This document shows positions 43,651 to 62,607 of a DNA stretch of 64,000 bases, piece after piece. Origin of the DNA: Tubulanus polymorphus. Its lineage: Eukaryota > Animalia > Nemertea. The stretch lies in the NCBI RefSeq assembly GCF_964204645.1, contig NC_134025.1:20187101-20251100 (forward strand), read 5' to 3'. The number at the start of each line of letters is the position of its first letter. Position 1 is the stretch's first letter. The notes beneath the pieces were generated by a model. It did not search any database, was not told the origin of the DNA, and was given only the letters and a program-made list of their open reading frames with translations. A program made the translations under genes and the position numbers.

Positions 43651-46600
43651 ATTTATTTATTTATTTCGCCATGTACATATGCAGTATAAATGATATATAG
43701 ATTATAAACAATTTACATACATACGAGGCTGGATGCTTGGAAAGCCAATGGAGGCTGTGTCCTGTAGGGATCCAAGCACCCAGAAAAAAAATTCAAAATT
43801 TAATGAAATTAGGTAGAATGAGGGTGAAATGGAAACGCGAAATGGGAGTAATCTGTCCGCTGTAGAAGTTTTAGATACATCAGTTTGATTCATTAACTTC
43901 AAAGAATTGTGCTTTAAATGACTTAAGACCAGAATTGGATTTGGGTTCAATAGCCATTAATTTCCTTAAATCTGTTTATTAGAGTGTGGACTGTTGGAGC
44001 ATTTTTGATTGAGGAATTTTGAGTTTGCCAGATAATTGGTATTTTTCCAAGAACAGATCTATTATATAAACTTGATGAATAGGCAGCAACTCTCGGATAG
44101 TCTCTTTGTCTAGTATTATAGTTGTGGTTGAATGAGTTTTTTTGAAAGATAGCAAGAATGGGCCGAGGAAGGCTAGTTTTAGTATATCTATAGCCAGTTT
44201 TAACCAATTCCAGTTTATTCAAGTCGTCAAGCTTCAAGATTTTCATAGATTTGAATAATGGATTAGATGGTGCTCGGGAAGTAGAGTTGAAAATCGTTCG
44301 TACTGCTCGCTTCTGTAATTTGAATAAGTGGTCTAAATTTTTCTTTGTTATGAGTGGAGCCCACAAATTCAGACAATACATTAAGTGACTATGCACATAA
44401 CTGAAATAGAAAATCTTCTTTATCCATTGTGGAACAAAATTTTTTTATACATCTAATCAAATACAGGTTTTGTTGATTTTTGAAATTATACTTCGGACAT
44501 GCTCTTCAAAAGTTAAGTTCTCGTCAATATTAAGTCCTAGTAAAGTAAAGCTAGTCACCCTCTTTATTGTGTCATTTCCAAATTTTAGTTCTATATCGTC
44601 GAAATTTACTTTAAACGAACGTGGTTTAAATAGCATATATGCTGTTTTGCTGATATTCAGGGTTAATTTATTAGCTTTAAACCAGTCAATAATAGAAATT
44701 AAGTCAGATTTGACATTTTGCACAAGTAATCTCAAGTTTTTTTCACTTGCTACTAGTGTACTGTCATCTGCAAAAAGAATAGATTTACAATACTTTAGGG
44801 ACCCCGACAAATCATTTGTATAAATAATAAAAAGCAGTGGCCCTAAAATTGAGCCCTGTGGTATTCCATAGTCGAAATTTTTAATACGAGACTTAGAATT
44901 TCTAAATTCAACAAACATTTTTCGATTTTTCAGGTAACTTGTGAACCATTTTAGGGCTGTTCCCCGAATTCCAAGATATGATAGTTTAGATAAAAGAATG
45001 TCAATGTCTAGTGAATCGAATGCTTTCGAAAGATCTAAATATATACTTAACATAAATTGTTTAGAATCAATAGTGTCTATGGCATGACTCAAGAATTCTT
45101 ATAGGGCATCGCAGGTCGAGTGATTTTCTCTAAATCCGTATTGACTTGGATAAAGTAAACTAAATCTTTTAATGAAAGTATATAGCCGTTTGTGTACTAT
45201 TCTTTCAAGAACTTTTGATAAAACTGGCAAAAGAGAAATAGGTCTGTAATTATTCATATCGTCCTTACTTTTATTTTTGTATATAGGAATAACTTTGGCA
45301 ATTTTCATGCTGGTAGGGAAGTGACCTTCAGCCATTGACTTATTGACAGTAAGTGGTTCAGCTATTTCATGGCCAATGGACCTGATCAAAATATTGTTCA
45401 AATCATCGTGTCCACAGCTGGATTTACTTGGGAGATTGTGAATAACTTTTAATACCTCGTTAGGATCTGTGGGGAAGAGAAAAATAGAAGATTCATTACG
45501 GTTTCGAAGATATTTGTCAAAAGATTTATTTGAAATGGGAATTTTTGAGGCGTACGATTTACCCAATGTACTAAAAAAATCATTGAATGAATTACTTATT
45601 TCAAGTGGTTCATTGATAACCCTCCCACTCACAGTAAATGAATCGGAAGTAATACTGGTTTTATCATTTTGTTTCCCAATGATTATTTTTAAGAAGCTCC
45701 AAAGTTGTTTGGCATTATCTTTATATGTTAGAATTCTTTTGCCGTAATATGCCTTTTTAGCTCGACGTTTGATGTAGTTCAGATTATTACGATAATTTAA
45801 ATACGCGATGTAACGAGGATCGGTTTTATTTAAGCCAATGACTTTTCTATAGATTCTATCTTTCTTTTTGGTAGCTTTACATAAGCCTGTTGTCATCCAT
45901 GGCTCAATGATAACAGTTTTTTTTTATAGGTGTTTGATATACAGGGGGAAATGTCATCTAATACAGTTTTAATGTTTTCAATGATATGATTGTATCCCTC
46001 TTCGCTACTTAGATTATTAATTTGGTTCCAGTCCTTTCTCAAAAGGGAATTTCTGATATGAAAAATTTTTTTTTCAGATAGATCTCTATAAGTATATTGA
46101 TGAGTAATTGTTTTAGAGGTATGATTTTTAAGTTTAATAGATACAAGGCACGGTAGGTGATCAGATAAGTGTGATGTCAAGATGAAACTCTCATAATCCA
46201 ATAACTCATGAGATAGATAAATATTGTCAATTAGAGTAGCTGTTGAATGAGTGATGCGAGTTGGCTTAGTTATTGTTGGCAGAAGATTATGATCAAAATT
46301 ATGTATCATCAAAATTATTATCAAACTTATCAAAATTGGAGAAATTCCGCTGTATTTCTGTGACAGTTGGTTTTTATTAGGTCTAGATTTTGATCCATTC
46401 CTAAAATCTTCAATTTATTTTCTAATTCAATTTTATCCAATAATGAATTATAGTCATCTATGAATTCAAGCCCACTTGTACCTGGAACTCTATAAATTTC
46501 ACCAATTATGAAGTTTTTGTTATTCGGTCTAGAAATTTCAATGATACAGGATTCAAAATGGCCTTCTTTGAAAATTGTTAAGTCGTCTCTGATTTTGGAG

Positions 46601-46882
46601 TTATATTTATTACTAACAAAAATTGCAACACCACCTCTCTTTCCTGACTTTCTATGTTTCTCGTAGAGTTTATAACCGGGAATGGTAAATAGATCTGAAT
46701 TTTGGTCATCCATGAAGGTTTCACACAGGAGTAATATGTCGATTTCGCAATTTGATTTTTTACAGGTTTCTAATAAGAGTTTAAGGTCGTTTATTTTTGC
46801 TGGAATACTGTGTATATTTAAATGAATTATGTTAAGATTTCCATGGGTTTCATAGTGAAATATATCATGCGCTTCAATGTAT
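43651..46882 (-). mobile_element. CR1/L2-group LINE ORF2 (APE + RT), frameshifted, with 3' UTR and (TAAA)n tail
   Basis: HLNIHS, LCETF, GGVAIF, PTRIT..TLIDNIY, SDHLP; YRPISLL, DLSKAFD, GIPQGSILGP, FADDS; split across 5 ORFs. Confidence 0.9.
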
Positions 46883-48151
46883 TGATACACCGGTCACAAT
46901 CCTCTCCTTAATCGTTGAATATAAAAACGTAAAGATCGGTCCCTGGCGAGAGAACGTGTCCGTGCACAAACCCAAATAATCAAACTAAAATGCCGAAATT
47001 CTGATTGAATATAATAATAATAATATAGATTTTATTTACCTTGATGATAGTAATAACTCCAGATAGTACACAGTCCAATTCCTAACTCCAAATTCCTATT
47101 GTACACTACTGTTGGTAACCCGTCTTAACTCTGGTATTTCCACCCAAACCTCAAGTATCTCTAACGAGCGTCCCTGGTAAGTCTGCTTTCTCAAGACTGC
47201 GGGCCTTTTTTATAGAAAAGATCGACATTCCTAGAATGCCGACTCTCCCGTTCGACTTTTGGCAAGGAGCAGCAACCTAGCTGTCATGACGGTTTTGGAC
47301 ATGTAGAATTAGCCTTAATGATTCGCTAATCTAAAATTATTTGAGAAACTGATTTGCCAAAGTAACTTTTCTTTCCAACCCTCCTGTCATAACGCGCTTT
47401 GATTTACTCACTCCCTACTCATCATCGTTGAGAGAGCAGCTATTCTCTACGAGTTACCAACAGACATGTACACCAACAGAAACCTTAGAGAGCTAGTATT
47501 GATATTTGCCACAATTAAACTTCCATAAAACTTAAGCGATTATAAAGGTCTTGTCCTTAATTAACATCCAGGATACTTAATTTAGATATATTTTCAAAAC
47601 TTAGTTTTCACCTAGATTATGGAACAAACTCATCGTTTCTTTTTCCAATCAACAATAGTAAACTTTTGATTCAGAAATACAATGTAATTAATTATCAAAT
47701 CTAAAATCATTCTATACTTATTATACCAATTTTCATTTATAATTTAACTAACTCTATAATACTACAGGATAAAGCAAAACAACCATGTCTCCCTATACTT
47801 CCGGTTCTTCCTTTTATAGAAAGTAGTCGGGAGTATCAAGAAGTAACAGCGAGATCCCTGCACAAACCACACTATCAAAGCACCTCATCGTTCCGACCCA
47901 ACCAATTACGTCTATCCTTAAGTTTTTTAAAAATAATTCTGAATGTTTGCCAGATATCGACGCACAAGAACCGAGGAAGAATTATTTTTACCCCTGGCTG
48001 ATTTATTGTCAGCGCTGGTAGATCAAAGCATCAAACAACAACTTGCACACATCGTTTGCTGTCTGATACCCATAAAGAAACCACCAACGTAAACAAAAAC
48101 CATCATTACAGACATTCTTTAGTTACTACGGAATCTTGCTGCGGATCATCA
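46883..48151 (-). repeat. 3' LTR (1269 bp)
   Basis: TG...CA termini; line-by-line identical to 60623-61891. Confidence 0.97.
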
Positions 48152-49633: not shown

Positions 49634-52267
49634 TCAGTACAGATATGGGTACAGCCTACTGGCATCAGCCAATAGCGAATTCCTGGGAATCCCCACCGAA
49701 TAGTCTGGTGGCGACAGATCGCCGCCAGGGGAAGCTGTGAGTGCCAGTATACCGGGCCCATGCTCAGTCCGAGCCTCATCATGTATAACCACGATCTCGG
49801 GTTCCACAGACGAAACTGTCAGCTGGGTCGCTTCTCGTAGTTCGGTAGTAAACGACCGATAAACCGCAACAACCACAACCTTACTCGGAACTGACACGAG
49901 CTGTCTCATTGTGAAGAGACTTACTCGTAGGGGAACCGAGCAGGAAGTCGGCAGATTATACATCGTCCCTTGCGAACAAGTCAGTTGCTTAGCCTGCCAG
50001 GTTAAGTTCAAGCGGGCGACTCCACAAATGACTCGCAACGCAACCTTAGTAAGAGCTGGAGGCTCGAAACAACATCTCGTTTCACAACCGGACAATGTTA
50101 GTAGAGGCAAGTCCAATGTCTGAATTCCATTCTTAAGCCTTATGGCTAGCCTAACCGGATATTTTCCCGGTGAACAAGGTGCAGGCAAACAGTGTCGGCA
50201 CCTATAGCACATAGCACGCAATAAAGGTCTGAACACAATTATAACTATACCTACTACAATAACTAAGAACAGGACGACATCGACGCGCACATTCTTGGCT
50301 GTGACAACCTCCCGAATGACCGTATTATTCCAGCCACCTCGTTGTAGGTCATGGATAGCGGGGTGAACAGTCACCATAGCTTCAGCGGTCGGAAGAAGTC
50401 CTGCTCCCAGAATTGATAAGGACCCTTGCGACTTTAGCAAAACGAATATTGAGAGCAGCATGCTGCCCGCAGAGAGACCAATAGCGAGCCAAGTGAGCCA
50501 CCCTGTACCGGTTCCAGACGAAATAACAGGTTCAGAATGATCAAATAAAGCGTCTGCTTGCGATCGGTACAGTTTAGCGTCAGTTTGAACGGTTCTTGCT
50601 AACTTTTTGAAATCCATGCTAAATTTAGTGTCCACCGCAGCCACTTTTGACCAGTTATTAGCCTTGAAATCCAAACTAGGCAGCGGTGCGTATGGCGTGC
50701 CCTGGAACATTGTCGCTCCAGTAACGTTGGACACTACATTCTTTGAAAAGAAACTATGTAGGACTGGTAAATTAACAGCGTGCGCAATGGTCACCGTGTC
50801 TTGGTTAATACATTTGTTAATTCTACCGGGCACAAAAAATTTTGATCCACGCAATGCACATGCACACCCAATTTTTACCAAACAAAAACGACATGCTTTT
50901 ATTGCTTTTGGTGACTTGCCAGGGCAGGCGAGAGTCCAAAAATCGTCAGTGCCTGAAACAACAAAGTAGCCATCCCCTACGTCGACTGCCAGTTCGGCCA
51001 GGCCCTGGACCTCATACCGTATGTGGCATAATGCTAGCACCTGTGAGGGTTTATCGAAGAAAAGGCTACTCAGGCATGATTCTACGGTTGCTTCGCGCAT
51101 GGACACGCGCTGCCGGCAAGTCATCACATCGGTTCCATAACAAGTAGCAAATATATCGTGACCCATTTCAGTGTAGTAACTACCGTCCCTAGTAGCGCCA
51201 AAATAAGGGGCTGTACCAACAATCATTGAAGTGTTATAGGACGTTGCGTTTATTGGCACTGGCATTAAGACAACCGAGTATAAATCAAAATATGTCTGAC
51301 CAGATTGCAAGGGGATTTTGATTGATATGTAAACAAATTTATCGGTCTTAGTAAAGCACACATCCTTAACTATGTAATAATAGCCTACATCCCTATTAGC
51401 TATTGAAAACCCAGAATGCATCCTATTCAATTTTTCGGACACATCGTCAAGAACCTTCGAAACCATTTTTGGATTAACCAGGGCTCTAGGCAAATATCCC
51501 TCCAATAACTTTTCAACCCCCTGCAACCACTCACTGGAAACTGCCGTCAGTCGTTCCACTAGGATGATATTTCTTATTGTCATGTCAGACGCCAATGCTA
51601 GCATACTCGCATCGACACTTTGCTTTAGCAGTGTCGTTCGAATTGATTTAAGTTCTTTTGAATTGGCCACGTATGCAGAGGTCAGGCTACTGATTCGTTT
51701 GTCAGTCGCGTTAATAAATGAAGAGAGTGTCCCCTGTATGTGGGTGATTTGATCCGAATTCAACTTGACTATTTTTTCTACTTTTTCGACGTGATTTTCT
51801 ACTTGCTGAACTTCATCTTCGGTAGCAGTACCGAACAAGGAAGACGAAATCGATCCGATAAATGAAAGTGGTGCACGTTTGACCCTGCGCCCACTGGCGT
51901 GTCGTTTCTTTCGTGAGTCGGTATCTGCAGCATCAGGTATCATTTGTCTCATATCAGCCAATTGTCCCCTGATATGGGTCAACGTGTCTAACTGTAGGCG
52001 ATGCGCCTCACGAAACATTTCCAAATAGCCGGAGCAGTGAGAACGAAGTTCTGGCTGGACAAGAGAACAGCGTAGCCGCAAGCCTTTACTCGGGGGGTCA
52101 TTAACAACTAGCCATGGTATCGCGAACGTGTGAAACCAGGCACTGTCGCCATTATGGACTCCTCCAATCCGATGAAAGGCGACACCATAGTTTGGCCTCA
52201 AGACCGTCGAGGGCATCAGACAATAGGCCGACGACCATATGGCCACCAAGATTACGACAATTTGCAT
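49634..52267 (-). CDS. env: Envelope (class I fusion, F-like) polyprotein, 877 aa
   Basis: Signal peptide MQIVVILVAIWSSAYC, furin site RRVKR, fusion peptide APLSFIGSISSSLFGTAT, heptad region, Cys-rich ectodomain, TM segments; tttttcag acceptor 1 nt before ATG. Confidence 0.88.
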   Translation of the reverse strand: MQIVVILVAIWSSAYCLMPSTVLRPNYGVAFHRIGGVHNGDSAWFHTFAIPWLVVNDPPSKGLRLRCSLVQPELRSHCSGYLEMFREAHRLQLDTLTHIRGQLADMRQMIPDAADTDSRKKRHASGRRVKRAPLSFIGSISSSLFGTATEDEVQQVENHVEKVEKIVKLNSDQITHIQGTLSSFINATDKRISSLTSAYVANSKELKSIRTTLLKQSVDASMLALASDMTIRNIILVERLTAVSSEWLQGVEKLLEGYLPRALVNPKMVSKVLDDVSEKLNRMHSGFSIANRDVGYYYIVKDVCFTKTDKFVYISIKIPLQSGQTYFDLYSVVLMPVPINATSYNTSMIVGTAPYFGATRDGSYYTEMGHDIFATCYGTDVMTCRQRVSMREATVESCLSSLFFDKPSQVLALCHIRYEVQGLAELAVDVGDGYFVVSGTDDFWTLACPGKSPKAIKACRFCLVKIGCACALRGSKFFVPGRINKCINQDTVTIAHAVNLPVLHSFFSKNVVSNVTGATMFQGTPYAPLPSLDFKANNWSKVAAVDTKFSMDFKKLARTVQTDAKLYRSQADALFDHSEPVISSGTGTGWLTWLAIGLSAGSMLLSIFVLLKSQGSLSILGAGLLPTAEAMVTVHPAIHDLQRGGWNNTVIREVVTAKNVRVDVVLFLVIVVGIVIIVFRPLLRAMCYRCRHCLPAPCSPGKYPVRLAIRLKNGIQTLDLPLLTLSGCETRCCFEPPALTKVALRVICGVARLNLTWQAKQLTCSQGTMYNLPTSCSVPLRVSLFTMRQLVSVPSKVVVVAVYRSFTTELREATQLTVSSVEPEIVVIHDEARTEHGPGILALTASPGGDLSPPDYSVGIPRNSLLADASRLYPYLY

Positions 52268-52313
52268 CCTGAAAAATAGGGATAGCAAGAATCAGTAATC
52301 TCGAAACCACGTA

Positions 52314-55300
52314 CTAGTCGTCTCTTTCTCGACGTCTCTTCTTATTTTTACGAGTTTTTCGCTTCACTTTAGCGGCATGGTCATCCCAATAGGCTCGAAT
52401 GATTTCAGGAGGCAGGTTTTCGGCTGGCTCAAACGTGTTCTCATTATCGTCATAGCCAACCCATTTTATAAGATATTTCAGAATGCCTTTCTCTTTTTTG
52501 TGACGAATCACTCGTTCTACGTAATAGATTGGCTCAACCGGATTCGCAGGCTGATTTCGATCGCCCGGATCATCCGGTGCGAGGACAGGCCCCTCCTCAG
52601 GTTGATCCCCGTCCTCCCTGTCAATAGGTGGATTCTCAGGTATGTCGTCCTCGAGCGGCCTAATGTCCGTTGAAAAGAAATGCTTCAATCTATTACAATG
52701 TACTGGGACGGCCAACTCTTGATTCCTCTCATTCTCCAAAATGAAAGATACAGGAGAAATCTGTCGGACAATTCGATAAGGGCCCGTCCATTGATGAAGC
52801 AATTTCTTACTAAGCCTCTTTATTTTCTTTGGAGTGAATAGCAACACTTGATCACCTACTGCGAAATTTGGGGGAACGGCAGTCCTGTCGAAACGTTCCT
52901 TCATCTTCTCCTGCGCCTTTTTGATATTAGCCTTGGCCAACTTCCTGGCCTCTTTTAACTTTGGCAACATTGCTTGGACAAAGCCTCCTGCATCAAAGTA
53001 AACGTCCCTCGGATTAAGTAAAGCAACGTCCATCGGCAACCTCGGTTCTCGGCCATACATGAGGTAGAATGGCGAGTATTGCGACGTATCCGAAGCTGGA
53101 CTTACCCGATATGCAAATAGAATGGGGTAAAGGTATTCGTCCCAATCGGTTTGGCGTTCATTGCAGTACATGCTCAGAGCCTTGACAATCACAAGATTCA
53201 TGTGCTCGACTTGTCCTTGAGTTTGTGGTCTATACGCACTGGACCGTGCCCGTGGCGTATTACATAGCCGCGAAACCTCGCTGACTAATTTACTCAGGAA
53301 ATTTGTTCCGCGATCGCTCTGCAAAACAGAGGGCGCCCCATGGCGACAAATGATTTGTTCATAAAAGATCGTAGCGACCGTCGTGGCTTCTTGGTTAGTC
53401 ATAGCAAAAGCTTCAACCCACTTTGTAAGATAGTCGACAAAGACCAATATGTATTTATTTCCCGAGTCCGTTGTTGGAAAAGGACCACAGACATCCATTG
53501 AGACTCTATCCCACGGCCCTGTGACAGCTATGGGGTTAACCGGGGCCCTAATGGGCTTCCCTGGCTGATTCTTAGTCGCACAGTCCTTACAGGATTTAAT
53601 CCAATTTTCAACGTCTCGATACATACCATGCCAGTAATACCTTGCTCGCAAGGTTTCGTAGGTCCGTTTGTGACCCAAGTGACCGCCAGTCATTGAATCA
53701 TGACCAGCCTCTAACATTTCCGCATACATACTTTTAGGTATGACCAACTGACGAGGCCCATCAGCCTCAATTTTCTTTTTAGAGTCCACATGGTAAAGAA
53801 CTCCATCATCGTCAACAAAGAAGTAGTCTGACTGCAAGATAATTCTCCGGGCTTCCTTGTCATCATCTGGCAAGGTACCATCAAGTAAATAGTCTATAAG
53901 ACACACTAATTGTAAATCAGACCGCTGGAGCTCGCCCATGTTGACGGGTACAGGCCGCTCATTGTCAGCCTCGAGAGCACACGTGTCGATAGTGTCTTCC
54001 ATACTATCAGAGATGGGATACGGGCGACGAGAGAGCCCATCGGCGTTCCCGTTTGCCTTGCCTGGACGATGCGATATGGAGTAGTCAAATTGCTCTAAGT
54101 AGAGTGCAATACGGCCAACACGACCCGAAAGTGTTTTCATGGTCTGAAGATACCGTAAGCAACTGTGGTCTGTGATAATCTCGAAATGATATCCCCGTAA
54201 GTAGGGTTCAAACTTTTTGACTCCTGCTGCAACAGCTAAGAGTTCACGGTCCGTTGTAGAATAATTTTTCTCCGCTTTATTCAATCCTCGCCCCGCATAT
54301 GCAATTGCTCTTTCTTGCCCATCCTGGACCTGCGCCAGGACCATGCCGATACCTTCATCGGAGGCATCAGTATATAATAAAAATGGCGATGCCCCATAAA
54401 TGGGGAAGGCCAATACTGGGGCTTCGAGCATCGCTTGCTTAAGGGTGTCGAAAGCCTGTTGACAAGAAGCGTCCCATCTATACGGCACGCCTTTCTTAGT
54501 CAACTGGTGTAAGGGGGCCGCCATAGTGCTGTAACCTTTACAAAAACGCCGATAATAATTGGTGAACCCCAGAAAACTTCGTAGTTCTTTTAAAGTCGTG
54601 GGGACAGGCCATTCCTGTACGGCTGCTACCTTTTCCGGGTCAGTAGCGATCCCGTCCTTAGATATTCGATGCCCAAGGAAGTCAATGGTTTTGACAGCAA
54701 ACCGACATTTCTTGGGATTTAGGCGAAGGCCTGACTCACGAAATCGATCGAAAATTTGAGCCAGGTGAATTAAATGACCATCAAAAGAATTCGAGTAACA
54801 GATAATATCGTCCAAATATACTAGACAAAATTTCCCAACCAAGTCTCTCAGCAGACCACCAGTCAACCGCTGAAAGGTAGATGGCGCCGATTTCAGACCA
54901 AATGGGAGTACCTTAAATTCCAAAAGAGACGACTGTGTTATAAAAGCAGTCTTATCCCTACTGGCCTCGTCAACTTCAACTTGCCAGTAGCCACTCAGAA
55001 AATCAAGTGAGCTAAAGAATGTAGGTGCCGCTTGACCAACCTGAGCCAAGAGATCATCGATTCTAGGCAGGGGAAAAGAGTCTGAACGGGTGACAGCATT
55101 CAATCCCCGGTAGTCAACACAGAATCTCCACTTGACATCTCCGTCCGGGCTCTTCTTCCGAACGAGAACGACCGGGGCAGCCCATGGGCTAGTACTATGC
55201 TGTACTATCCCCATGTCTAACATCTGTTTGACATGCGTGTCAATAACTTCTTGCATGGCCGGAGAGGCTCTATAAGGCCTTTTCCGAATTGGGGCCGCGT

Positions 55301-57080
55301 CCCCTGTGTCAATGACGTGTTTGACTAAGTCAGTTTTACCAAGTTCGTCCGGTGTTCGTGCAAAAATGTCCCGATACGATCGTATTAGTTCAAGAAGTTC
55401 CGCTTTCTGTGATACAGAAAGGTCCGAGTCTGACATATCTATTTCCGGTATCCCAATGTCAGCAGATGTCTGAGGGTAGTCCACATGTGTGACAGACACC
55501 TCTGGAGGTCGGGTCAGCTGTCCCGAATTCCCTTCATTCTTCAGGGATTGGTCAAGTGACCACCCATCTGTCCATAAGTGGCCAAGACACATATCCTCAT
55601 AGAGGGTGACATGTCGTGATGTGGGATTCATGACCCGAACCGGAATGCCTGATTGCGTAACGTCGACAACTGACCTTGCACTCATAAGATCATGTGCCCT
55701 TAATTGATTTGCCGGCTCAAAGACTGCCACCGATGCTTGTGTCCTGTCAATCGAGTACTTTCCGTCTATGATGACCTCACATGAGGGGGGAATGACAGTC
55801 ATTTGCGTAACCTTGACGGACGAAGACTTGCCCAAATTGACAGTATTGTTGAAGTAAATTGCATCGGCCCCTGGTAACAAAAGGGCCTTTCTTGCATAAT
55901 CAATAACTGCCTGGTTTTGTTCTAAGAAATCAGCTCCAAGAATTACATCGGACGTGATACCGTCTACCACGTACATAGAGTGCGTAATTTCCAAATTGCC
56001 TAACACAAAATCCACAGAAATAACTCCTCTCAGGTCAAATTTAGTTCCATCTACCCCACGGGCAGATTGGAATTGACCGACCTGCAAAGGGCCATTTGAT
56101 ATCTGAGGATGAGTCGTAAAATAATCGTTCGATAATACAGATATTTCGGCGCCCGTGTCGATCAAAATACTTAATGGTGTCCCCGAATGGCTACCTGTCA
56201 CTCGGTTAGCGACAGTTGCCATGATCGACGGGGAATAAACCTCTTGTTCAACAGGATTATTCTGACTAGAAAGAGACCATATGTCGTTGGTTGGCGTGTC
56301 ACCTAACGTCGTCGTAATAGGCGGAAGTTGTTCCTGACAGTGAATAGTAGGTTGAAACTCGGAGTTCGAATCTCCTATTCCAACATTGTCATTGGTTGGC
56401 ATAATTGGTTCAGACGTGGGGACAACCTGACCTCCGTCCCGTACGATGGACATTTCATTACCGAATAACCGACAACAATTTTCCGATGTTGACACCTGAT
56501 TCGATACATTCGATACGACAGTCTCCGTATCATGATGATCATTACGACATTCCGACCGTGAACTGTTATTACTTAAATCAACTGACACTAGGTCACATTG
56601 TACCGCTGATTCGGAAGTTACCGGGTACTTATACTGATCAAGAGTGCGTTCGTGACAATTCAATTGAGACTTCTTATCTCTAAAAAGGTCATCTTCTGCC
56701 GAATCCGTCGGACCATTAACCCCTCTAGGGTGTGACCTATCAACACTAATATTGTCACCCGAGCACGCCATATCCGCACGTACCTCCTGCAATTCAACCG
56801 GATCGCTAAATGTGACCCTCCTGTGTCTTTTTATAGGCTCTCTAGTAACCGACAACTGGGAATTATTCATCCAGCTGTCCTCAAAATTGGATCCCCGATC
56901 CATATAAAAATTTCCATCAAACGACAACTGGGTATTGTCCCTCCAGCTGTCCCCAAAGTTACGATCTTGAATGTCATAAACGTCATCGGCACCCCATGAA
57001 GGAGTGTGATAATCAATAAACTTATTTAAATGTATAGGTTCATTTTCATCTAAGTAATCTACATTACAGTTCCCCTCAGG
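52314..57080 (-). CDS. pol: Pol: aspartic protease, RT, RNase H, integrase, chromodomain
   Basis: LIDTGA; YLDD; YTDAS; H-H-C-C, SMDVCGP/QSDRG/GQVE, WTGPY; YYVERV..YLIKWVGY..NTFEPAENL; frame is open up to a TAA at 57081-57083. Confidence 0.95.
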   Translation of the reverse strand, partial: PEGNCNVDYLDENEPIHLNKFIDYHTPSWGADDVYDIQDRNFGDSWRDNTQLSFDGNFYMDRGSNFEDSWMNNSQLSVTREPIKRHRRVTFSDPVELQEVRADMACSGDNISVDRSHPRGVNGPTDSAEDDLFRDKKSQLNCHERTLDQYKYPVTSESAVQCDLVSVDLSNNSSRSECRNDHHDTETVVSNVSNQVSTSENCCRLFGNEMSIVRDGGQVVPTSEPIMPTNDNVGIGDSNSEFQPTIHCQEQLPPITTTLGDTPTNDIWSLSSQNNPVEQEVYSPSIMATVANRVTGSHSGTPLSILIDTGAEISVLSNDYFTTHPQISNGPLQVGQFQSARGVDGTKFDLRGVISVDFVLGNLEITHSMYVVDGITSDVILGADFLEQNQAVIDYARKALLLPGADAIYFNNTVNLGKSSSVKVTQMTVIPPSCEVIIDGKYSIDRTQASVAVFEPANQLRAHDLMSARSVVDVTQSGIPVRVMNPTSRHVTLYEDMCLGHLWTDGWSLDQSLKNEGNSGQLTRPPEVSVTHVDYPQTSADIGIPEIDMSDSDLSVSQKAELLELIRSYRDIFARTPDELGKTDLVKHVIDTGDAAPIRKRPYRASPAMQEVIDTHVKQMLDMGIVQHSTSPWAAPVVLVRKKSPDGDVKWRFCVDYRGLNAVTRSDSFPLPRIDDLLAQVGQAAPTFFSSLDFLSGYWQVEVDEASRDKTAFITQSSLLEFKVLPFGLKSAPSTFQRLTGGLLRDLVGKFCLVYLDDIICYSNSFDGHLIHLAQIFDRFRESGLRLNPKKCRFAVKTIDFLGHRISKDGIATDPEKVAAVQEWPVPTTLKELRSFLGFTNYYRRFCKGYSTMAAPLHQLTKKGVPYRWDASCQQAFDTLKQAMLEAPVLAFPIYGASPFLLYTDASDEGIGMVLAQVQDGQERAIAYAGRGLNKAEKNYSTTDRELLAVAAGVKKFEPYLRGYHFEIITDHSCLRYLQTMKTLSGRVGRIALYLEQFDYSISHRPGKANGNADGLSRRPYPISDSMEDTIDTCALEADNERPVPVNMGELQRSDLQLVCLIDYLLDGTLPDDDKEARRIILQSDYFFVDDDGVLYHVDSKKKIEADGPRQLVIPKSMYAEMLEAGHDSMTGGHLGHKRTYETLRARYYWHGMYRDVENWIKSCKDCATKNQPGKPIRAPVNPIAVTGPWDRVSMDVCGPFPTTDSGNKYILVFVDYLTKWVEAFAMTNQEATTVATIFYEQIICRHGAPSVLQSDRGTNFLSKLVSEVSRLCNTPRARSSAYRPQTQGQVEHMNLVIVKALSMYCNERQTDWDEYLYPILFAYRVSPASDTSQYSPFYLMYGREPRLPMDVALLNPRDVYFDAGGFVQAMLPKLKEARKLAKANIKKAQEKMKERFDRTAVPPNFAVGDQVLLFTPKKIKRLSKKLLHQWTGPYRIVRQISPVSFILENERNQELAVPVHCNRLKHFFSTDIRPLEDDIPENPPIDREDGDQPEEGPVLAPDDPGDRNQPANPVEPIYYVERVIRHKKEKGILKYLIKWVGYDDNENTFEPAENLPPEIIRAYWDDHAAKVKRKTRKNKKRRRERDD

Positions 57081-57262
57081 TTAAAAATAAAGAGAAAATG
57101 AGTCAGCTAGCATGTTGCCCTGATCAAATGACATGTCGAATATATCATCCCTATCGTCCTCAAAATAATCATCAACATCATTAAAAATATAATCGTCGAT
57201 TACAGGACTGTCATCGTCATATCTATGATATGAATATGAGTCGTCCCACCAAAAATCACTCC

Positions 57263-58423
57263 TTATCGTCGAATCGGGCGAGGGCTCTGTTGACCATTCA
57301 TTGCGCGACCCCACCCTTGTCGGTCCATAGGATGAGGTCCCCGGTCGTTTCCCTGACTAAATGTTCGATTAGCCCCTTGGGAACCACGTCCAATATTCTG
57401 TGACCGAAACTGGCCCCTACCAAAGTTTTGGGGACGGTGATTATCACGCTGAAATGCGTCCCGGTTTGGCGAGACCCGCGACCTTTGTTGGTCGTAACGC
57501 CAAGTTGGACAATTCCTGGCGTAATGACCGGGGGCGTGACATTGGTAGCACACCACCTGCCCATCTTGCGACCGTTGTGATGGACGGTTCTCGCTATAAT
57601 AAGTACCCCTATCATCCCGCTGAGTTCGGGTAGACTTTTGTGTGTCCATGATTTGGCGGAACATGTCCCGTAGCTCCGTCATGACATCCCCTATCGCCTT
57701 ATTTGGTTCGGTCCCAATTTGCGATATCTTGGGAGACGACAGGGCCTTTCGTTGTTCGATATGTTCAGCCATTCTGGCTGCCTCCCATGCATCCCTAAAA
57801 GTCGTTGGACGTTGCGACAACAGATAGACTGAAATGTCAGGCCGAGAGTTATTGATCAATAACATCTTTTTCTGGTGGTCCGAGAACTTCAAACTTGAGG
57901 CCACCCGATCAATCTCCTCCGCAAACCTATCGACCGGTTGCGTTTCCCCCTGTCGCATTGTCGTCAAGGCCGACTCCTTGACCAAGGCCCACGAGGTAGG
58001 GCTAAATTGCGTGCAAAATGCATGCACAATATGCTCCCAGGGAGTGGTAATTTTTGTGCCGGTCGAATCGGTCGCCTGATCAATGCGGAGGTCATTGAAT
58101 AGAACTAGGGCTGGGCCAGCCAAAAACCAATACAACTGTTTCTTTTTGGCATTTTCGTCCCAGCCTCTCAGATCGGCCAAACGATTGAACCCTCTGAACC
58201 AATCAGAGACGCACTGACTGTCTCGTCCTGTAAATTTCGGGAGCATGGAGAAGTTCATAAACGCGGTGGCCGTGTCCACCTGTTCGCGTAAGCCCGAGAG
58301 GGCCTCTAAAACCGTGTCATTGCTAATTGGGGGGTGACCCTGTGGGTTCCCTCCTGTAGAGGTTTGCCCCTGCAAGCCACCCGCATCGTCCGACCCGTAT
58401 GTTGTCCCGCTTCTAGTTGCCAT
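57263..58423 (-). CDS. gag: Gag (capsid + one CCHC knuckle), 386 aa
   Basis: LPKFTG..W, MRQGETQPVDRFAEE major-homology-like region, CYQCHAPGHYARNC. Confidence 0.92.
   Translation of the reverse strand: MATRSGTTYGSDDAGGLQGQTSTGGNPQGHPPISNDTVLEALSGLREQVDTATAFMNFSMLPKFTGRDSQCVSDWFRGFNRLADLRGWDENAKKKQLYWFLAGPALVLFNDLRIDQATDSTGTKITTPWEHIVHAFCTQFSPTSWALVKESALTTMRQGETQPVDRFAEEIDRVASSLKFSDHQKKMLLINNSRPDISVYLLSQRPTTFRDAWEAARMAEHIEQRKALSSPKISQIGTEPNKAIGDVMTELRDMFRQIMDTQKSTRTQRDDRGTYYSENRPSQRSQDGQVVCYQCHAPGHYARNCPTWRYDQQRSRVSPNRDAFQRDNHRPQNFGRGQFRSQNIGRGSQGANRTFSQGNDRGPHPMDRQGWGRAMNGQQSPRPIRR
57305..57353 (-). promoter_or_regulatory. Programmed -1 frameshift signal
   Basis: G GGA AAC in gag frame at 57353-57347, then a 10-bp stem GACCTCATCC/GGGTGGGGTC; -1 frame equals pol frame. 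Confidence 0.75.
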
Positions 58424-58481
58424 TTTCTAAACCAGAGTAATCAAATTATTATTATTCCTACGATGATGCTACTTTTAAATT

Positions 58482-59279
58482 CTAAACCTGATCCTGGCGA
58501 TCAGCCCAACAAAGTAGGTTATCCCAAGTACGGGCAACCTCCTCCACCGTAATCTCTTCCCTTAAAAATGACGAAAGAATGTCATCAATCTCCTCAAAAA
58601 TCCACGAAGTGCTAGGGCCAAGGGCAGACCGACTTTCCGAAAATCGGCCTATACCCCCGCTGGGTGACAGATCCAACGATTGGTCACCCGCAGACGCACC
58701 TAAGGACAGGTCTACTGGAAAACTTTGGACAGGTGCGCCCAAATGTCCGCCCAACAGTTGGCCCGCTACAGGCGTAACAATTGCTAATGGTCTGTTTAAA
58801 GATCGAGTTGCAGACAGGTCTGCCGGTTGCTCTGAATCGAACTGATCAATCCCTATAGGTGAACCAGGCGGCACCGAACAACAGCATGAAAAGCTTGAGT
58901 CGCTGGAACCGGTTGATCCAGCTGATGACGGCGGCCGTGTGAAAGGTTCACCAGTCCGTATCGAGCTATTTCGGTTCGAATCCGTACCCGAAGGACTTAG
59001 GGGCGGAGAAGGGGTCACTGAAGACGAGCAAGTACAATTTACCTGGTCCTGAAAAACCGCTAACGTTGGGCACTCACAATACAAACAACTATCCAAAAAG
59101 TCAAAGTCTGAAGACTGAGAAGTTGGAGTCCCAGCACTGGTCCCAGGGGAAGTAGTTATGATGGTAGGTGTCGCGGGTGCTATACTCACAGTAGTGAGCC
59201 ACCTTTTTCGGGGTAGTGTACTCCAATAACCAGTGCTACGACGTTTGTTTGTGCACCTTACCGTAATCGACCCCGACAT
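58482..59279 (-). CDS. Accessory ORF C, Ser/Pro-rich with PxDLS motifs, 265 aa
   Basis: ATG-started, GC-richer ORF bounded by T-rich spacers. Confidence 0.6.
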   Translation of the reverse strand: MSGSITVRCTNKRRSTGYWSTLPRKRWLTTVSIAPATPTIITTSPGTSAGTPTSQSSDFDFLDSCLYCECPTLAVFQDQVNCTCSSSVTPSPPLSPSGTDSNRNSSIRTGEPFTRPPSSAGSTGSSDSSFSCCCSVPPGSPIGIDQFDSEQPADLSATRSLNRPLAIVTPVAGQLLGGHLGAPVQSFPVDLSLGASAGDQSLDLSPSGGIGRFSESRSALGPSTSWIFEEIDDILSSFLREEITVEEVARTWDNLLCWADRQDQV

Positions 59280-59371
59280 TAACGTACTAACTTACAAATA
59301 ATAATCACCAAAAAGAAAATTATACAATTCGAGTTTAATTGCTTATTATAATTTCAATAACTAACCCCAAT

Positions 59372-59812
59372 TTAATCAAAGTAGCTGTATACTCGCGACT
59401 TATCAGCCAACAATACGTTATGGTCAGGGATAGCACATAAACTGAAATCCCCCTGATCCCAGGTAGACGTATAAGTATTAAGCCCGCTGGGTGGAGGGTT
59501 CGAATCCCTCAGAGTCTGTCCGACCGCTCCGTCGTTATTGGTACCCTTTGTGCTGAGTGGGTTTGAATCCAACAGTGGCTGTTTAACAGCTCTGTCGTTG
59601 GTAATACCCTTGATGCTAAGTGGGTTCGAATCCCACAGTGGCTGTTCAGCAGCTCTGTTGTTAGTGGTCCCCTTGGTGCTAAGTGGGTTCGAATCCCACA
59701 GTGGCTCCCTTAAATGAGCTGGTACCTCCCAACTAGACTTGGGGACTGGGGCAAGCGTGTGCGTCTTGGACACCGTCGCCCCACAGTAACCACGCCTCAA
59801 CCCAGCTGACAT
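59372..59812 (-). CDS. Accessory ORF B with 4 (W/L/R)DSNP repeats, 146 aa
   Basis: ATG-started; 63-bp repeat period keeps frame. Confidence 0.5.
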   Translation of the reverse strand: MSAGLRRGYCGATVSKTHTLAPVPKSSWEVPAHLREPLWDSNPLSTKGTTNNRAAEQPLWDSNPLSIKGITNDRAVKQPLLDSNPLSTKGTNNDGAVGQTLRDSNPPPSGLNTYTSTWDQGDFSLCAIPDHNVLLADKSRVYSYFD

Positions 59813-60450
59813 GTATCAATCACAAACAACACCAAATATTTTTCACAAATAACAATCAGGCAATCATAAAGTTAACAATTGACTGGTACTATAAGACCCC
59901 CTTAGTCTATGCTGGACAAAGGAAATAGCCGTCAGCGTCTTTATCACCAAAGAACAACTCGGCCGGGTTTGCAAAATCACGAAAAAAATGTGCCCAAAAT
60001 GGGTCGAATTTCTCGGGCACTTTCACTGGCTTTACCCTTTGCCGGCGTTCGAGAGGGTTTGAATCCCTCGAGGTGATCGAAGCTTCGCGCTGAGTGTCGG
60101 TCGGGTTAGAATCCCGTAAAGGCTCAGCAGATACGGCCAAAGTCAGCAGTGGGTTCGAATCCCACAACGGCTCCCGATACTCTTCCGGGATTTCAAATGG
60201 CTGTGCACCTCTGGGGTTCGAATCCCGCAGTGTCTCAACAGGGTCGACCGGAGTTGGCAGTGGGTTCGAATCCCACAATGGTTCCCGAAACTCGACCGGA
60301 ATTTCAAATGGCTGTGCACCTCTGGGGTTCGAATCCCGCAGTGTCTCAACAGGGTCGACCGGAGTTGGCAGTGGGTTCAAATCCCACAATGGTTCCCGAA
60401 ACTCGACCGGAATTTCAAACGGTTTGGTATTAGGTGGGTTCGACCCCCAC
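59494..60450 (+). repeat. Array of 12 tRNA T-arm / Pol III B-box hairpins
   Basis: Consensus GTGGG-TTCGAAT-CCCAC starting at 59494, 59557, 59620, 59683, 60053, 60101, 60149, 60212, 60260, 60323, 60371 and 60434. Confidence 0.9.
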
Positions 60451-60545
60451 AATTTCTTTTTGTATGTTGAGTTGGTTGTAGTGCGGCGCTTCTTAGAGAA
60501 TGCGTTCCTCGCACCACAGTGGGAGCATACGAAGATATGTACCAT
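59907..60545 (-). CDS. Accessory ORF A with CxxC, basic NLS-like patch and 8 WDSNP-like repeats, 212 aa
   Basis: First ATG ~60 nt after the PBS; 48/63-bp repeat spacing keeps frame. Confidence 0.55.
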   Translation of the reverse strand: MVHIFVCSHCGARNAFSKKRRTTTNSTYKKKLWGSNPPNTKPFEIPVEFREPLWDLNPLPTPVDPVETLRDSNPRGAQPFEIPVEFREPLWDSNPLPTPVDPVETLRDSNPRGAQPFEIPEEYREPLWDSNPLLTLAVSAEPLRDSNPTDTQREASITSRDSNPLERRQRVKPVKVPEKFDPFWAHFFRDFANPAELFFGDKDADGYFLCPA

Positions 60546-60602
60546 TTGAACAAAACTAAACAATTAATGTAAAAAGTTTATCGTAAACCGAAGATTATTG
60601 AT

Positions 60603-60621
60603 ATCCCGGGTTTCGGCACCA
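60603..60621 (-). promoter_or_regulatory. Primer binding site, tRNA-Phe
   Basis: TGGTGCCGAAACCCGGGAT, complementary to the 3' end of metazoan tRNA-Phe(GAA) ...ATCCCGGGTTTCGGCACCA, 1 nt from the LTR. Confidence 0.9.
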
Positions 60622-60622
60622 A

Positions 60623-61891
60623 TGATACACCGGTCACAATCCTCTCCTTAATCGTTGAATATAAAAACGTAAAGATCGGTCCCTGGCGAGAGAACGTGTC
60701 CGTGCACAAACCCAAATAATCAAACTAAAATGCCGAAATTCTGATTGAATATAATAATAATAATATAGATTTTATTTACCTTGATGATAGTAATAACTCC
60801 AGATAGTACACAGTCCAATTCCTAACTCCAAATTCCTATTGTACACTACTGTTGGTAACCCGTCTTAACTCTGGTATTTCCACCCAAACCTCAAGTATCT
60901 CTAACGAGCGTCCCTGGTAAGTCTGCTTTCTCAAGACTGCGGGCCTTTTTTATAGAAAAGATCGACATTCCTAGAATGCCGACTCTCCCGTTCGACTTTT
61001 GGCAAGGAGCAGCAACCTAGCTGTCATGACGGTTTTGGACATGTAGAATTAGCCTTAATGATTCGCTAATCTAAAATTATTTGAGAAACTGATTTGCCAA
61101 AGTAACTTTTCTTTCCAACCCTCCTGTCATAACGCGCTTTGATTTACTCACTCCCTACTCATCATCGTTGAGAGAGCAGCTATTCTCTACGAGTTACCAA
61201 CAGACATGTACACCAACAGAAACCTTAGAGAGCTAGTATTGATATTTGCCACAATTAAACTTCCATAAAACTTAAGCGATTATAAAGGTCTTGTCCTTAA
61301 TTAACATCCAGGATACTTAATTTAGATATATTTTCAAAACTTAGTTTTCACCTAGATTATGGAACAAACTCATCGTTTCTTTTTCCAATCAACAATAGTA
61401 AACTTTTGATTCAGAAATACAATGTAATTAATTATCAAATCTAAAATCATTCTATACTTATTATACCAATTTTCATTTATAATTTAACTAACTCTATAAT
61501 ACTACAGGATAAAGCAAAACAACCATGTCTCCCTATACTTCCGGTTCTTCCTTTTATAGAAAGTAGTCGGGAGTATCAAGAAGTAACAGCGAGATCCCTG
61601 CACAAACCACACTATCAAAGCACCTCATCGTTCCGACCCAACCAATTACGTCTATCCTTAAGTTTTTTAAAAATAATTCTGAATGTTTGCCAGATATCGA
61701 CGCACAAGAACCGAGGAAGAATTATTTTTACCCCTGGCTGATTTATTGTCAGCGCTGGTAGATCAAAGCATCAAACAACAACTTGCACACATCGTTTGCT
61801 GTCTGATACCCATAAAGAAACCACCAACGTAAACAAAAACCATCATTACAGACATTCTTTAGTTACTACGGAATCTTGCTGCGGATCATCA
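60623..61891 (-). repeat. 5' LTR (1269 bp)
   Basis: Identical to 3' LTR; minus-strand TATAAAA near 60948-60954 and AAG/GTAAATAAA near 60780. Confidence 0.97.
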
Positions 61892-61984
61892 TGGACAGCT
61901 ATTGGTGAAAATATTTAAGTCTTTGTCAATTACGTGGGAAAGATCGAAATTTTCATCTGCTGAAATGATTTCCAGTCTTGTCAT
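61892..61984 (-). pseudogene. N-terminus of the interrupted CR1-group LINE ORF2
   Basis: MTRLEIISADENFDLSHVIDKDLNIFTNSCP continues as YIEAHDIF at 46881. Confidence 0.6.
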
Positions 61985-62607
61985 GAAATTTGTATTGCCT
62001 AAACACATAATCGGACAGATGAGGTTCGGCGGACAGATAAACGATGGTAGTGTTATGACGAAGTATGACTACGTGAAATGACAGGAGTAAATGCACACAC
62101 ATAATAAACTATATACTTATGGGTAATCGCCAACTTGTATATGGCTGTTATTGTGAGTGTGTTTTCAAAATGCGGGAAAATATATAATGATTTACTAGTT
62201 AATACTACAATGATGTCCAATGGAGTGAAACCTTTTCATGCCACCAGAGTGAAATACTCAATACCTTAATACGAGATAGGCTCAATGAGGAATACTCACT
62301 ACTCAGAGTAAATAAATAATCTTGCATGGCATGTGTCCAACCAAAGATTTGTTTACAAGTCATCCAGGAAGAAAGACACTAAATATTTGGATGGATATAT
62401 GAAAGCTGTGGGTACTGGAGTGTGTAATGGGTAGTGTAGTGTGATCTGTGTGCATTTGTGGCCAGCACACAGATCACATTGTTCAATGGGGTTTGGTCCA
62501 GGACTCGCGAGATTTTCAACAACACGGAAGTAACGTGTAATAAATGATGACTTGAATTGCATGACTACCTACCACCCCTCATTATTGTTGTAAAAGTAAA
62601 CGTTCCG

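Follow-up and report, generated by a model that had tools for sequence, protein, structure and literature searches.

The window, by which we mean the whole 64,000-nucleotide stretch of Tubulanus polymorphus DNA that was analyzed, contains a complete retrovirus-like Ty3/gypsy element of 15,009 bp (about 15 kb) on its minus strand, and an array of short hairpins lies in the 5' leader of this element. The order is LTR-gag-pol-env-LTR, with protease, reverse transcriptase, RNase H, then integrase sequences present in that sequence according to Pfam and the list of open reading frames (ORFs). Coordinates are window positions, and the genes and LTRs of the element all lie on the minus strand. The 5' LTR (60623..61891) is 1,269 bp long and identical to the 3' LTR (46883..48151) at 1269/1269 positions, suggesting that this is a young copy. 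A purine-rich tract precedes the 3' LTR on the sense strand. The primer binding site (PBS; 60604..60621, minus strand) adjoins the 5' LTR and is of the Phe-GAA/His-GUG type, its 12-mer being entered as such in the available part of the supplement of PMC13524379. The gag gene (57263..58423) has a CCHC zinc knuckle (PF03732, PF00098), pol (52314..56927) encodes protease, reverse transcriptase, RNase H, integrase and a chromodomain (Pfam; chromodomain PF00385), and env (49634..52288) is of the F type (PF12259, E 3.9e-10). The available passages of PMC13524379 describe a chromodomain-carrying errantivirus clade from Cnidaria, Mollusca and Annelida whose members are likewise gag-pol-env Ty3/gypsy elements with LTRs, an F-type env and a chromodomain after the integrase, a likeness of domain layout. 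The passages searched mention no leader ORFs or hairpin arrays such as those of the element studied here.

The gag and pol genes occupy separate frames about 330 nt apart (56927-57263), and a stretch of about 240 amino acids before the protease is unannotated. The LTR contains a 24-nt inverted repeat (60840-60863 and 61189-61212) that is 83% complementary. A splice-donor-like site lies at 61151 (minus strand) within the 5' LTR, and acceptor-like AGs precede the env ATG by 1 nt (52267, minus strand; 17/20 pyrimidines) and the gag ATG by 3 nt (58423, minus strand; 13/20 pyrimidines); if these sites are used, the spliced RNAs would be without the leader array. We did not observe a target-site duplication, given that there was no 4-6 bp match between the element flanks (46877-46882 and 61892-61897) despite the identical LTRs. 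This copy is possibly recombinant or an assembly join, which concerns its own history and not that of the family. On the left, the element is flanked by a LINE ORF2 truncated close to its start, which has no visible continuation in the right flank, and, in a by-eye reading, LINE-like endonuclease and reverse transcriptase frames flank the element at 43947-46893 (minus strand) and from about 63600 (plus strand).

Accessory ORFs in an ATG-poor leader

Three ORFs sit between the PBS and gag, all on the minus strand. ORF A (59907..60545) encodes 212 amino acids from its first ATG, in a frame open from 60563, and carries eight hairpin copies within a peptide repeat that centers on D-S-N-P. ORF B (59372..59812; 146 amino acids) carries four. 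ORF C (58482..59279; 265 amino acids), which was absent from the original prediction, lies between ORF B and gag, is rich in Ser, Pro, Thr and Gly, and has clusters of Cys. ORF A had no Pfam family above cut-off and no true homologue; its sole match among cluster representatives, P0001, was rejected as a long helical-repeat protein in which only periodic W-D was matched. ORF C had neither a Pfam match nor an atlas match, and homologue searches returned none for ORF A, ORF C or gag, and none for pol in viral contigs. The structure model of ORF A is mostly coil and of low confidence (pLDDT 49.5). In a hydropathy scan, the top 19-residue values of the three ORFs were 0.25, 0.42 and 1.14, with no membrane segment, and the central transmembrane helix that is a hallmark of MDG1 sORF2 and FAST-like fusogens is absent from all three. 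The sORF1 and sORF2 of the MDG1 group are, in the passages available of PMC11952523, also accessory ORFs upstream of gag on unspliced RNA; the present element differs in its three longer ORFs, the lack of a transmembrane segment and the presence of env.

The leader (58424-60603, minus strand; 2,180 nt) contains 8 ATGs, compared with 30.5 +/- 5.3 in simulated sequences, and 0/2000 simulations were as low. Its opposite strand contains 25 ATGs, and three of the eight on the sense strand start ORFs A, B and C. Such depletion is expected if ribosomes scan the leader. The start context is weak for ORFs B and C and strong for gag, and the leader looks like the leaky-scanning polycistronic type. Reads covering 58300-60700 came from four runs with the same species label, representing at most 3 samples and 2 studies. 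Among the 40 variants listed of 511, 35 fell in ORFs A to C (the 5 outside the ORFs were dropped), and 16 of these 35 were silent compared with about 29% expected (p 0.028). When other copies differed in length, the frame was kept at 7/7 listed joints within the ORFs for which the insert length was known, several being whole repeat units and perhaps four independent. Frameshifting indels do occur in some copies, namely -4 at 58651, -1 at 59482 (16/52 reads) and +1 at 59964 (3/76). As read from the sequence, ORFs A to C look likely to be translated. Over the same interval, runs X1, X2, X3 and X5 indicate that the host species carries several diverged subfamilies, which differ from this copy in their spacers and in the number of repeat units.

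Hairpin copies and their likeness to a tRNA T-arm

In all, a 17-nt hairpin unit with a 5-bp stem and a 7-nt loop is present 14 times in the element: 12 copies in the array within ORFs A and B, one in ORF C and one in pol. The four copies in ORF B (59494..59699) start at 59494, 59557, 59620 and 59683 with spacings of 63, 63 and 63, and the eight in ORF A (60053..60450) start at 60053, 60101, 60149, 60212, 60260, 60323, 60371 and 60434 with spacings of 48, 48, 63, 48, 63, 48 and 63. The original prediction had described 12 hairpins in two clusters at 48/63 spacing, and every start was recovered where it had been placed, together with the stem variants and the W-to-R change matched by a silent change in the Pro codon. 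The motif recurs in all 12 array copies, but the exact 17-mer is found in only 4/12, the exact loop in 7/12 and five Watson-Crick pairs in 8/12; the copy at 59557 carries a broken pair that the original prediction had left out. A position just downstream of the PBS describes the nearest copy, at 153 nt, and not the farthest array copy, at about 1,110 nt. The single extra copies that had been noticed were located at 58970 and 56360. The lone copy in ORF C (58970..58986) pairs at 4/5 stem positions, two of them via changes on both sides, and has 10/16 flanking bases in common with the copy of ORF B that starts at 59683. The other (56360..56376), which lies upstream of the protease within the pol frame, has a 4-bp stem of different sequence. 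When searched at one mismatch or fewer, GGTTCGAATCC occurred 17 times in the window versus 0.92 expected, a number reached in 0/100 shuffles.

The commonest copy is identical at 17/17 positions to a metazoan tRNA-Leu/Ser T-arm. The sequences printed in PMC4536317 and PMC10359600, as far as those sources were available, show the same 17-mer as the T-arm of tRNA-Leu (CAA, AAG, CAG) from Drosophila, worm and mammals, confirming the proposed likeness to a typical tRNA-Leu T-arm, and equally as the T-arm of tRNA-Ser-GCT. The arm reads on the plus strand, that is, antisense to the element, and the genomic RNA bears its complement; this orientation holds for 14/14 copies, and 14/14 also conform to the T-loop pattern when read on the antisense strand. 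The likeness to tRNA ends at the arm. ARAGORN found 0 tRNAs, all tRNA-clan matches of Rfam in 58000-62000 were under cut-off, and A-boxes were not enriched upstream of the copies, where the best matches had 1-2 mismatches and were background-like. A tRNA gene, a pseudogene or a tRNA-derived SINE was therefore rejected, there being no cloverleaf and no A-box excess. We also rejected an origin from a host tRNA-SINE, given that the five other matches in the window are single, short-stemmed and unrelated, and Pol III transcription units, given that there is no A-box excess and a T-run lies directly behind the last copy only.

Scans for close-spaced T-arm motifs returned 10 viral and 118 metagenome loci. 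These were rejected as relatives, since 0/128 encode a relative of the six ORFs and 8/10 viral loci lie among tRNA or tmRNA genes; a comparison of ORF B with Pfam and with the 128 fetched loci likewise gave no relative. They show that unrelated DNA, too, develops clusters of this kind. Four unrelated metagenome contigs (L019, L048, L074 and L122) carry 12 to 23 close-spaced T-arm/B-box-like motifs.

In computed folds, the isolated modal 17-mer formed a hairpin at -6.0 kcal/mol and a two-molecule self-duplex at -23.5 kcal/mol, the latter value being expected of any hairpin with a palindromic loop and not specific. In context, under global folding, 8/12 array copies mainly pair with other copies. 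The closing pair has a probability of 0.2 or less in 11/14 copies (140-nt context, genomic strand); in local folding, 7/14 copies reach 0.5 and both lone copies are at 0.04 or less. The low hairpin probability of the array copies arises because the copies pair with one another. Folding favored neither strand (antisense z -3.27, genomic z -2.69). The self-complementary 6-nt loop is intact in 9/14 copies, and in 4 copies the loop changes strike the central pairs of the palindrome.

Conservation of the hairpin as nucleic acid

We considered whether the hairpin is retained beyond what the peptide would account for, as had been proposed from the pairing of its stems. Where both clusters encode the same residue, their third bases agree at 104/120 positions within the 17-mer versus 17/54 outside it, a count made over 4 x 8 copies whose comparisons are non-independent. 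The D-S-N tripeptides in the six ORFs are written GAT-TCN-AAC in 12/12 cases, and the Asn codon is AAC in every hairpin copy, compared with 28% of the Asn codons in gag-pol-env. Across the 14 aligned copies, 89% of the stem cells pair, changes on both sides occur in 4/5 stem pairs (0/500 shuffles reach this), and one stem pair occurs as U-A, A-U, C-G and G-C. This covariation is counted on related paralogues, which can covary without structure, and the shuffle does not provide a probability; it rests on related copies because no relative was found outside the host species. All 11 B-box cores on the plus strand within the element close stems of 3-5 bp, compared with 1-2 bp for the 9 other cores in the window.

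The lone copies outside the array are the best independent test of hairpin retention. Those at 58970 and 56360 retain the core and a stem, with other stem sequences, even though the W and P of the peptide are lost. In simulations, two stemmed lone copies in the 11-kb stretch occurred in 0/2000 and one copy in 10/2000. The reads of other copies restore pairing at 60212 and 60213 (91/118 and 85/118, both silent) and at 59571 (22/34), although these may derive from sister repeat units. We also noted a higher read depth in hairpin bins (67.7 vs 49.3; 7 vs 16 bins; p 0.03), which was set aside because repeat stacking and T-arm reads of unrelated origin may account for it. Silent-site agreement, stem covariation, the lone copies and the reads support the original claim of selection on pairing as well as on frame. 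The overlapping of two constraints, protein coding and a nucleic-acid hairpin, is supported, and in our judgment selection probably acts at the nucleic-acid level.

Possible functions of the array

Three functions had been suggested for the array at the outset: TFIIIC binding, capture of tRNA by an anti-T-arm, and dimerization or packaging. The last fits best, the other two are weakened by our analysis, and none of the three is demonstrated. With somewhat less than even confidence, we propose that the 14 near-palindromic hairpins, lying in ORFs that are likely translated, act on the unspliced genomic RNA as a repeated signal for dimerization and packaging. Each copy is predicted to be able to give up its hairpin and form instead, with the matching copy of a second genome, a duplex of 16 bp; the self-complementary UUCGAA loop would mediate this flip, and the CCHC Gag would likely serve as its chaperone. 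Such a flip would explain the stem covariation and also why position 59, which is under no constraint from TFIIIC or from the protein, is fixed in 13/14 copies. The loss of the loop palindrome in 5/14 copies, and the loop change at 60221 (A58) in 33/130 reads, are left unexplained by it. In the available passages of PMC6844567, it is at the 5' end that the palindromes PAL1 and PAL2 of Ty1 and the dimer signals of retroviruses act, and by analogy the hairpins, which span the PBS to the protease, would lie where such signals act. The likeness extends to a 5' palindromic hairpin that is partly in coding sequence and that, in Ty1 and retroviruses, converts with Gag to an intermolecular extended duplex (PMC6844567, same passages), a conversion that is predicted from sequence here. 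Those systems have 1-3 sites, compared with 14 in the present element, where the unit is an antisense tRNA T-arm.

As to origin, an antisense T-arm may have been captured once, for example through plus-strand read-through of an ancestral Leu or Ser primer tRNA, and later multiplied, with the frame kept, within the accessory ORFs, such that the protein constraint on W/R-D-S-N-P would now help to hold the hairpin sequence. According to the passages seen of PMC13191261, the antisense orientation is what results when plus-strand synthesis reads through a primer tRNA beyond m1A58, and Leu and Ser primers are frequent among errantiviruses in the portion available of PMC13524379.

An alternative at the DNA level, which we regard as rather unlikely, is that a B-box cluster lacking A-boxes serves as a binding site for TFIIIC and so protects the integrated element against heterochromatin. 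The B-box cores called for by that model are present, with 11/14 copies matching GTTCRANYC in clusters that lack A-box enrichment, and the integrase bears a chromodomain; chromodomain integrases favor heterochromatin. All six contact-equivalent positions are kept in 9/14 copies (mapping inferred from PMC11811891). There are also precedents in the available text of two papers. The IR-L boundary of fission yeast has five B-boxes, and IR-L and IR-R are, like the array, clusters of B-boxes without A-boxes (PMC4502379), but they form a host boundary rather than part of a mobile element and have no overlapping ORF. The Drosophila gypsy insulator (PMC7168160), whose 12 su(Hw) sites lie within the 5' UTR, is also a degenerate 12-copy leader array in an env-carrying Ty3/gypsy element; it differs in being non-coding and in its sequence, and the passages searched mention no stem covariation for it. 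What weakens TFIIIC as an explanation is the pattern of constraint. Position 56 is worth 370-fold in TFIIIC binding (PMC11811891), but it is altered in 3/14 copies and is the most variable silent site, though on few events in all; A58 is altered at one copy in the reads described above, while the uncontacted position 59 is nearly fixed; and the covariation at 49-51/63-65 falls beyond the B-box, a feature that the binding of duplex DNA does not require. TFIIIC may bind the array and yet not be the cause of its retention.

A second possibility, which we consider improbable, is that the loops of the genomic-sense RNA pair with the T-loops of tRNAs or tRNA fragments, thereby concentrating or opening tRNAs in the particle. 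The exact 5+7 geometry, the identity to Leu/Ser T-arms and the uniform antisense orientation are all consistent with this, as are the 14 nt that the ORF C copy has in common with the tRNA-His arm printed in PMC10359600 (source available in part) and the finding that both non-silent loop changes in the window are within natural T-loop variation. The array would amount to an amplified version of the HIV primer activation signal or the Ty1 boxes. In the parts available of PMC13191261 and PMC6844567, the HIV primer activation signal, the primer over-extension sequence and Ty1 boxes 0/1/2.1 complement or mimic a T-arm, as here, but they are single and matched to their cognate primer, whereas here the sites are arrayed and the PBS is of another type; the T-loop mimic of brome mosaic virus described there is on sense RNA, whereas here the T-loop reads antisense. 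The original anti-T-arm model keeps its geometry and identity, but the PBS is of the Phe/His type and the arm, judged from the printed tRNAs, of the Leu/Ser type, the compensated stems would each mismatch a single tRNA arm twice, and complementarity ends at the arm, with no tRNA found by ARAGORN and none above cut-off in Rfam. Mature T-loops, moreover, bear m1A58 in a reverse Hoogsteen pair (PMC13191261, passages seen). A contact with tRNA through the loop only is possible. The broader claim that a captured T-arm array engages the host tRNA machinery, its DNA recruiting a TFIIIC boundary and its RNA binding T-loops or tRNA fragments, we judge unlikely.

It is similarly doubtful that the array is a peptide repeat only, that is, a short linear motif in ORFs A and B whose codons descend from a T-arm and whose stems are kept by gene conversion and template-switch repair. 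Template-switch repair acts on near-palindromes. All 14 copies share the D-S-N frame, which is predicted by a peptide function and not required by a nucleic-acid function, and each of the three position-56 changes is silent. The residues E, P/T and L beyond the hairpin are likewise conserved while their codons change silently, and in the ORFs the frame is kept and silent variants are in excess. However, the lone copies hold on to core and stem after the loss of W and P, the same frame in both of them has a 1 in 9 probability by chance, and conversion should homogenize the spacers, whereas third positions outside the hairpin agree at 105/288 between the clusters. Lastly, it is very improbable that the hairpins control translation by slowing scanning or elongating ribosomes and so setting the output of A, B, C and gag from one ATG-poor leader, given that, for all the scarcity of ATGs and the weak starts of B and C beside the strong start of gag, hairpins of -6 kcal/mol are weak and the fixed loop sequence and the pol copy are left unexplained.

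We found no prior description of an LTR element with an array of hairpins complementary to a T-arm in the full-text literature searched, which was mostly abstracts and included few subscription journals. Leader repeat arrays, leader ORFs (PMC11952523) and palindromic clusters (PMC2829016) are each known in LTR elements from the passages available. The repeated motifs of sireviruses (PMC2829016, same passages) are, like the array, high-copy palindromic motifs in env-carrying LTR elements, but sireviruses are plant Ty1/copia elements whose motifs lie in the LTRs and before env and are not T-arm-like. The union of these features with a tRNA arm and dual coding was not encountered in the literature searched.

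Collectively, these findings bear on a step of the LTR-retrotransposon cycle, RNA dimerization and packaging, that is little understood according to the available part of PMC6844567; for errantiviruses of the marine-invertebrate type, the literature searched contained nothing on it. The 14-copy, covarying and sharply bounded signal is a ready object for tests of dimerization and packaging. If TFIIIC or tRNA is the partner, then a tRNA fragment would have served a mobile element as raw material for an insulator or a tRNA trap, and such engagement of the tRNA machinery, if true, would be a new use of tRNA sequence by an LTR element beyond the primer site. The array itself clearly exemplifies the overlap of a protein code with a nucleic-acid code, here in three accessory ORFs of an ATG-poor leader.
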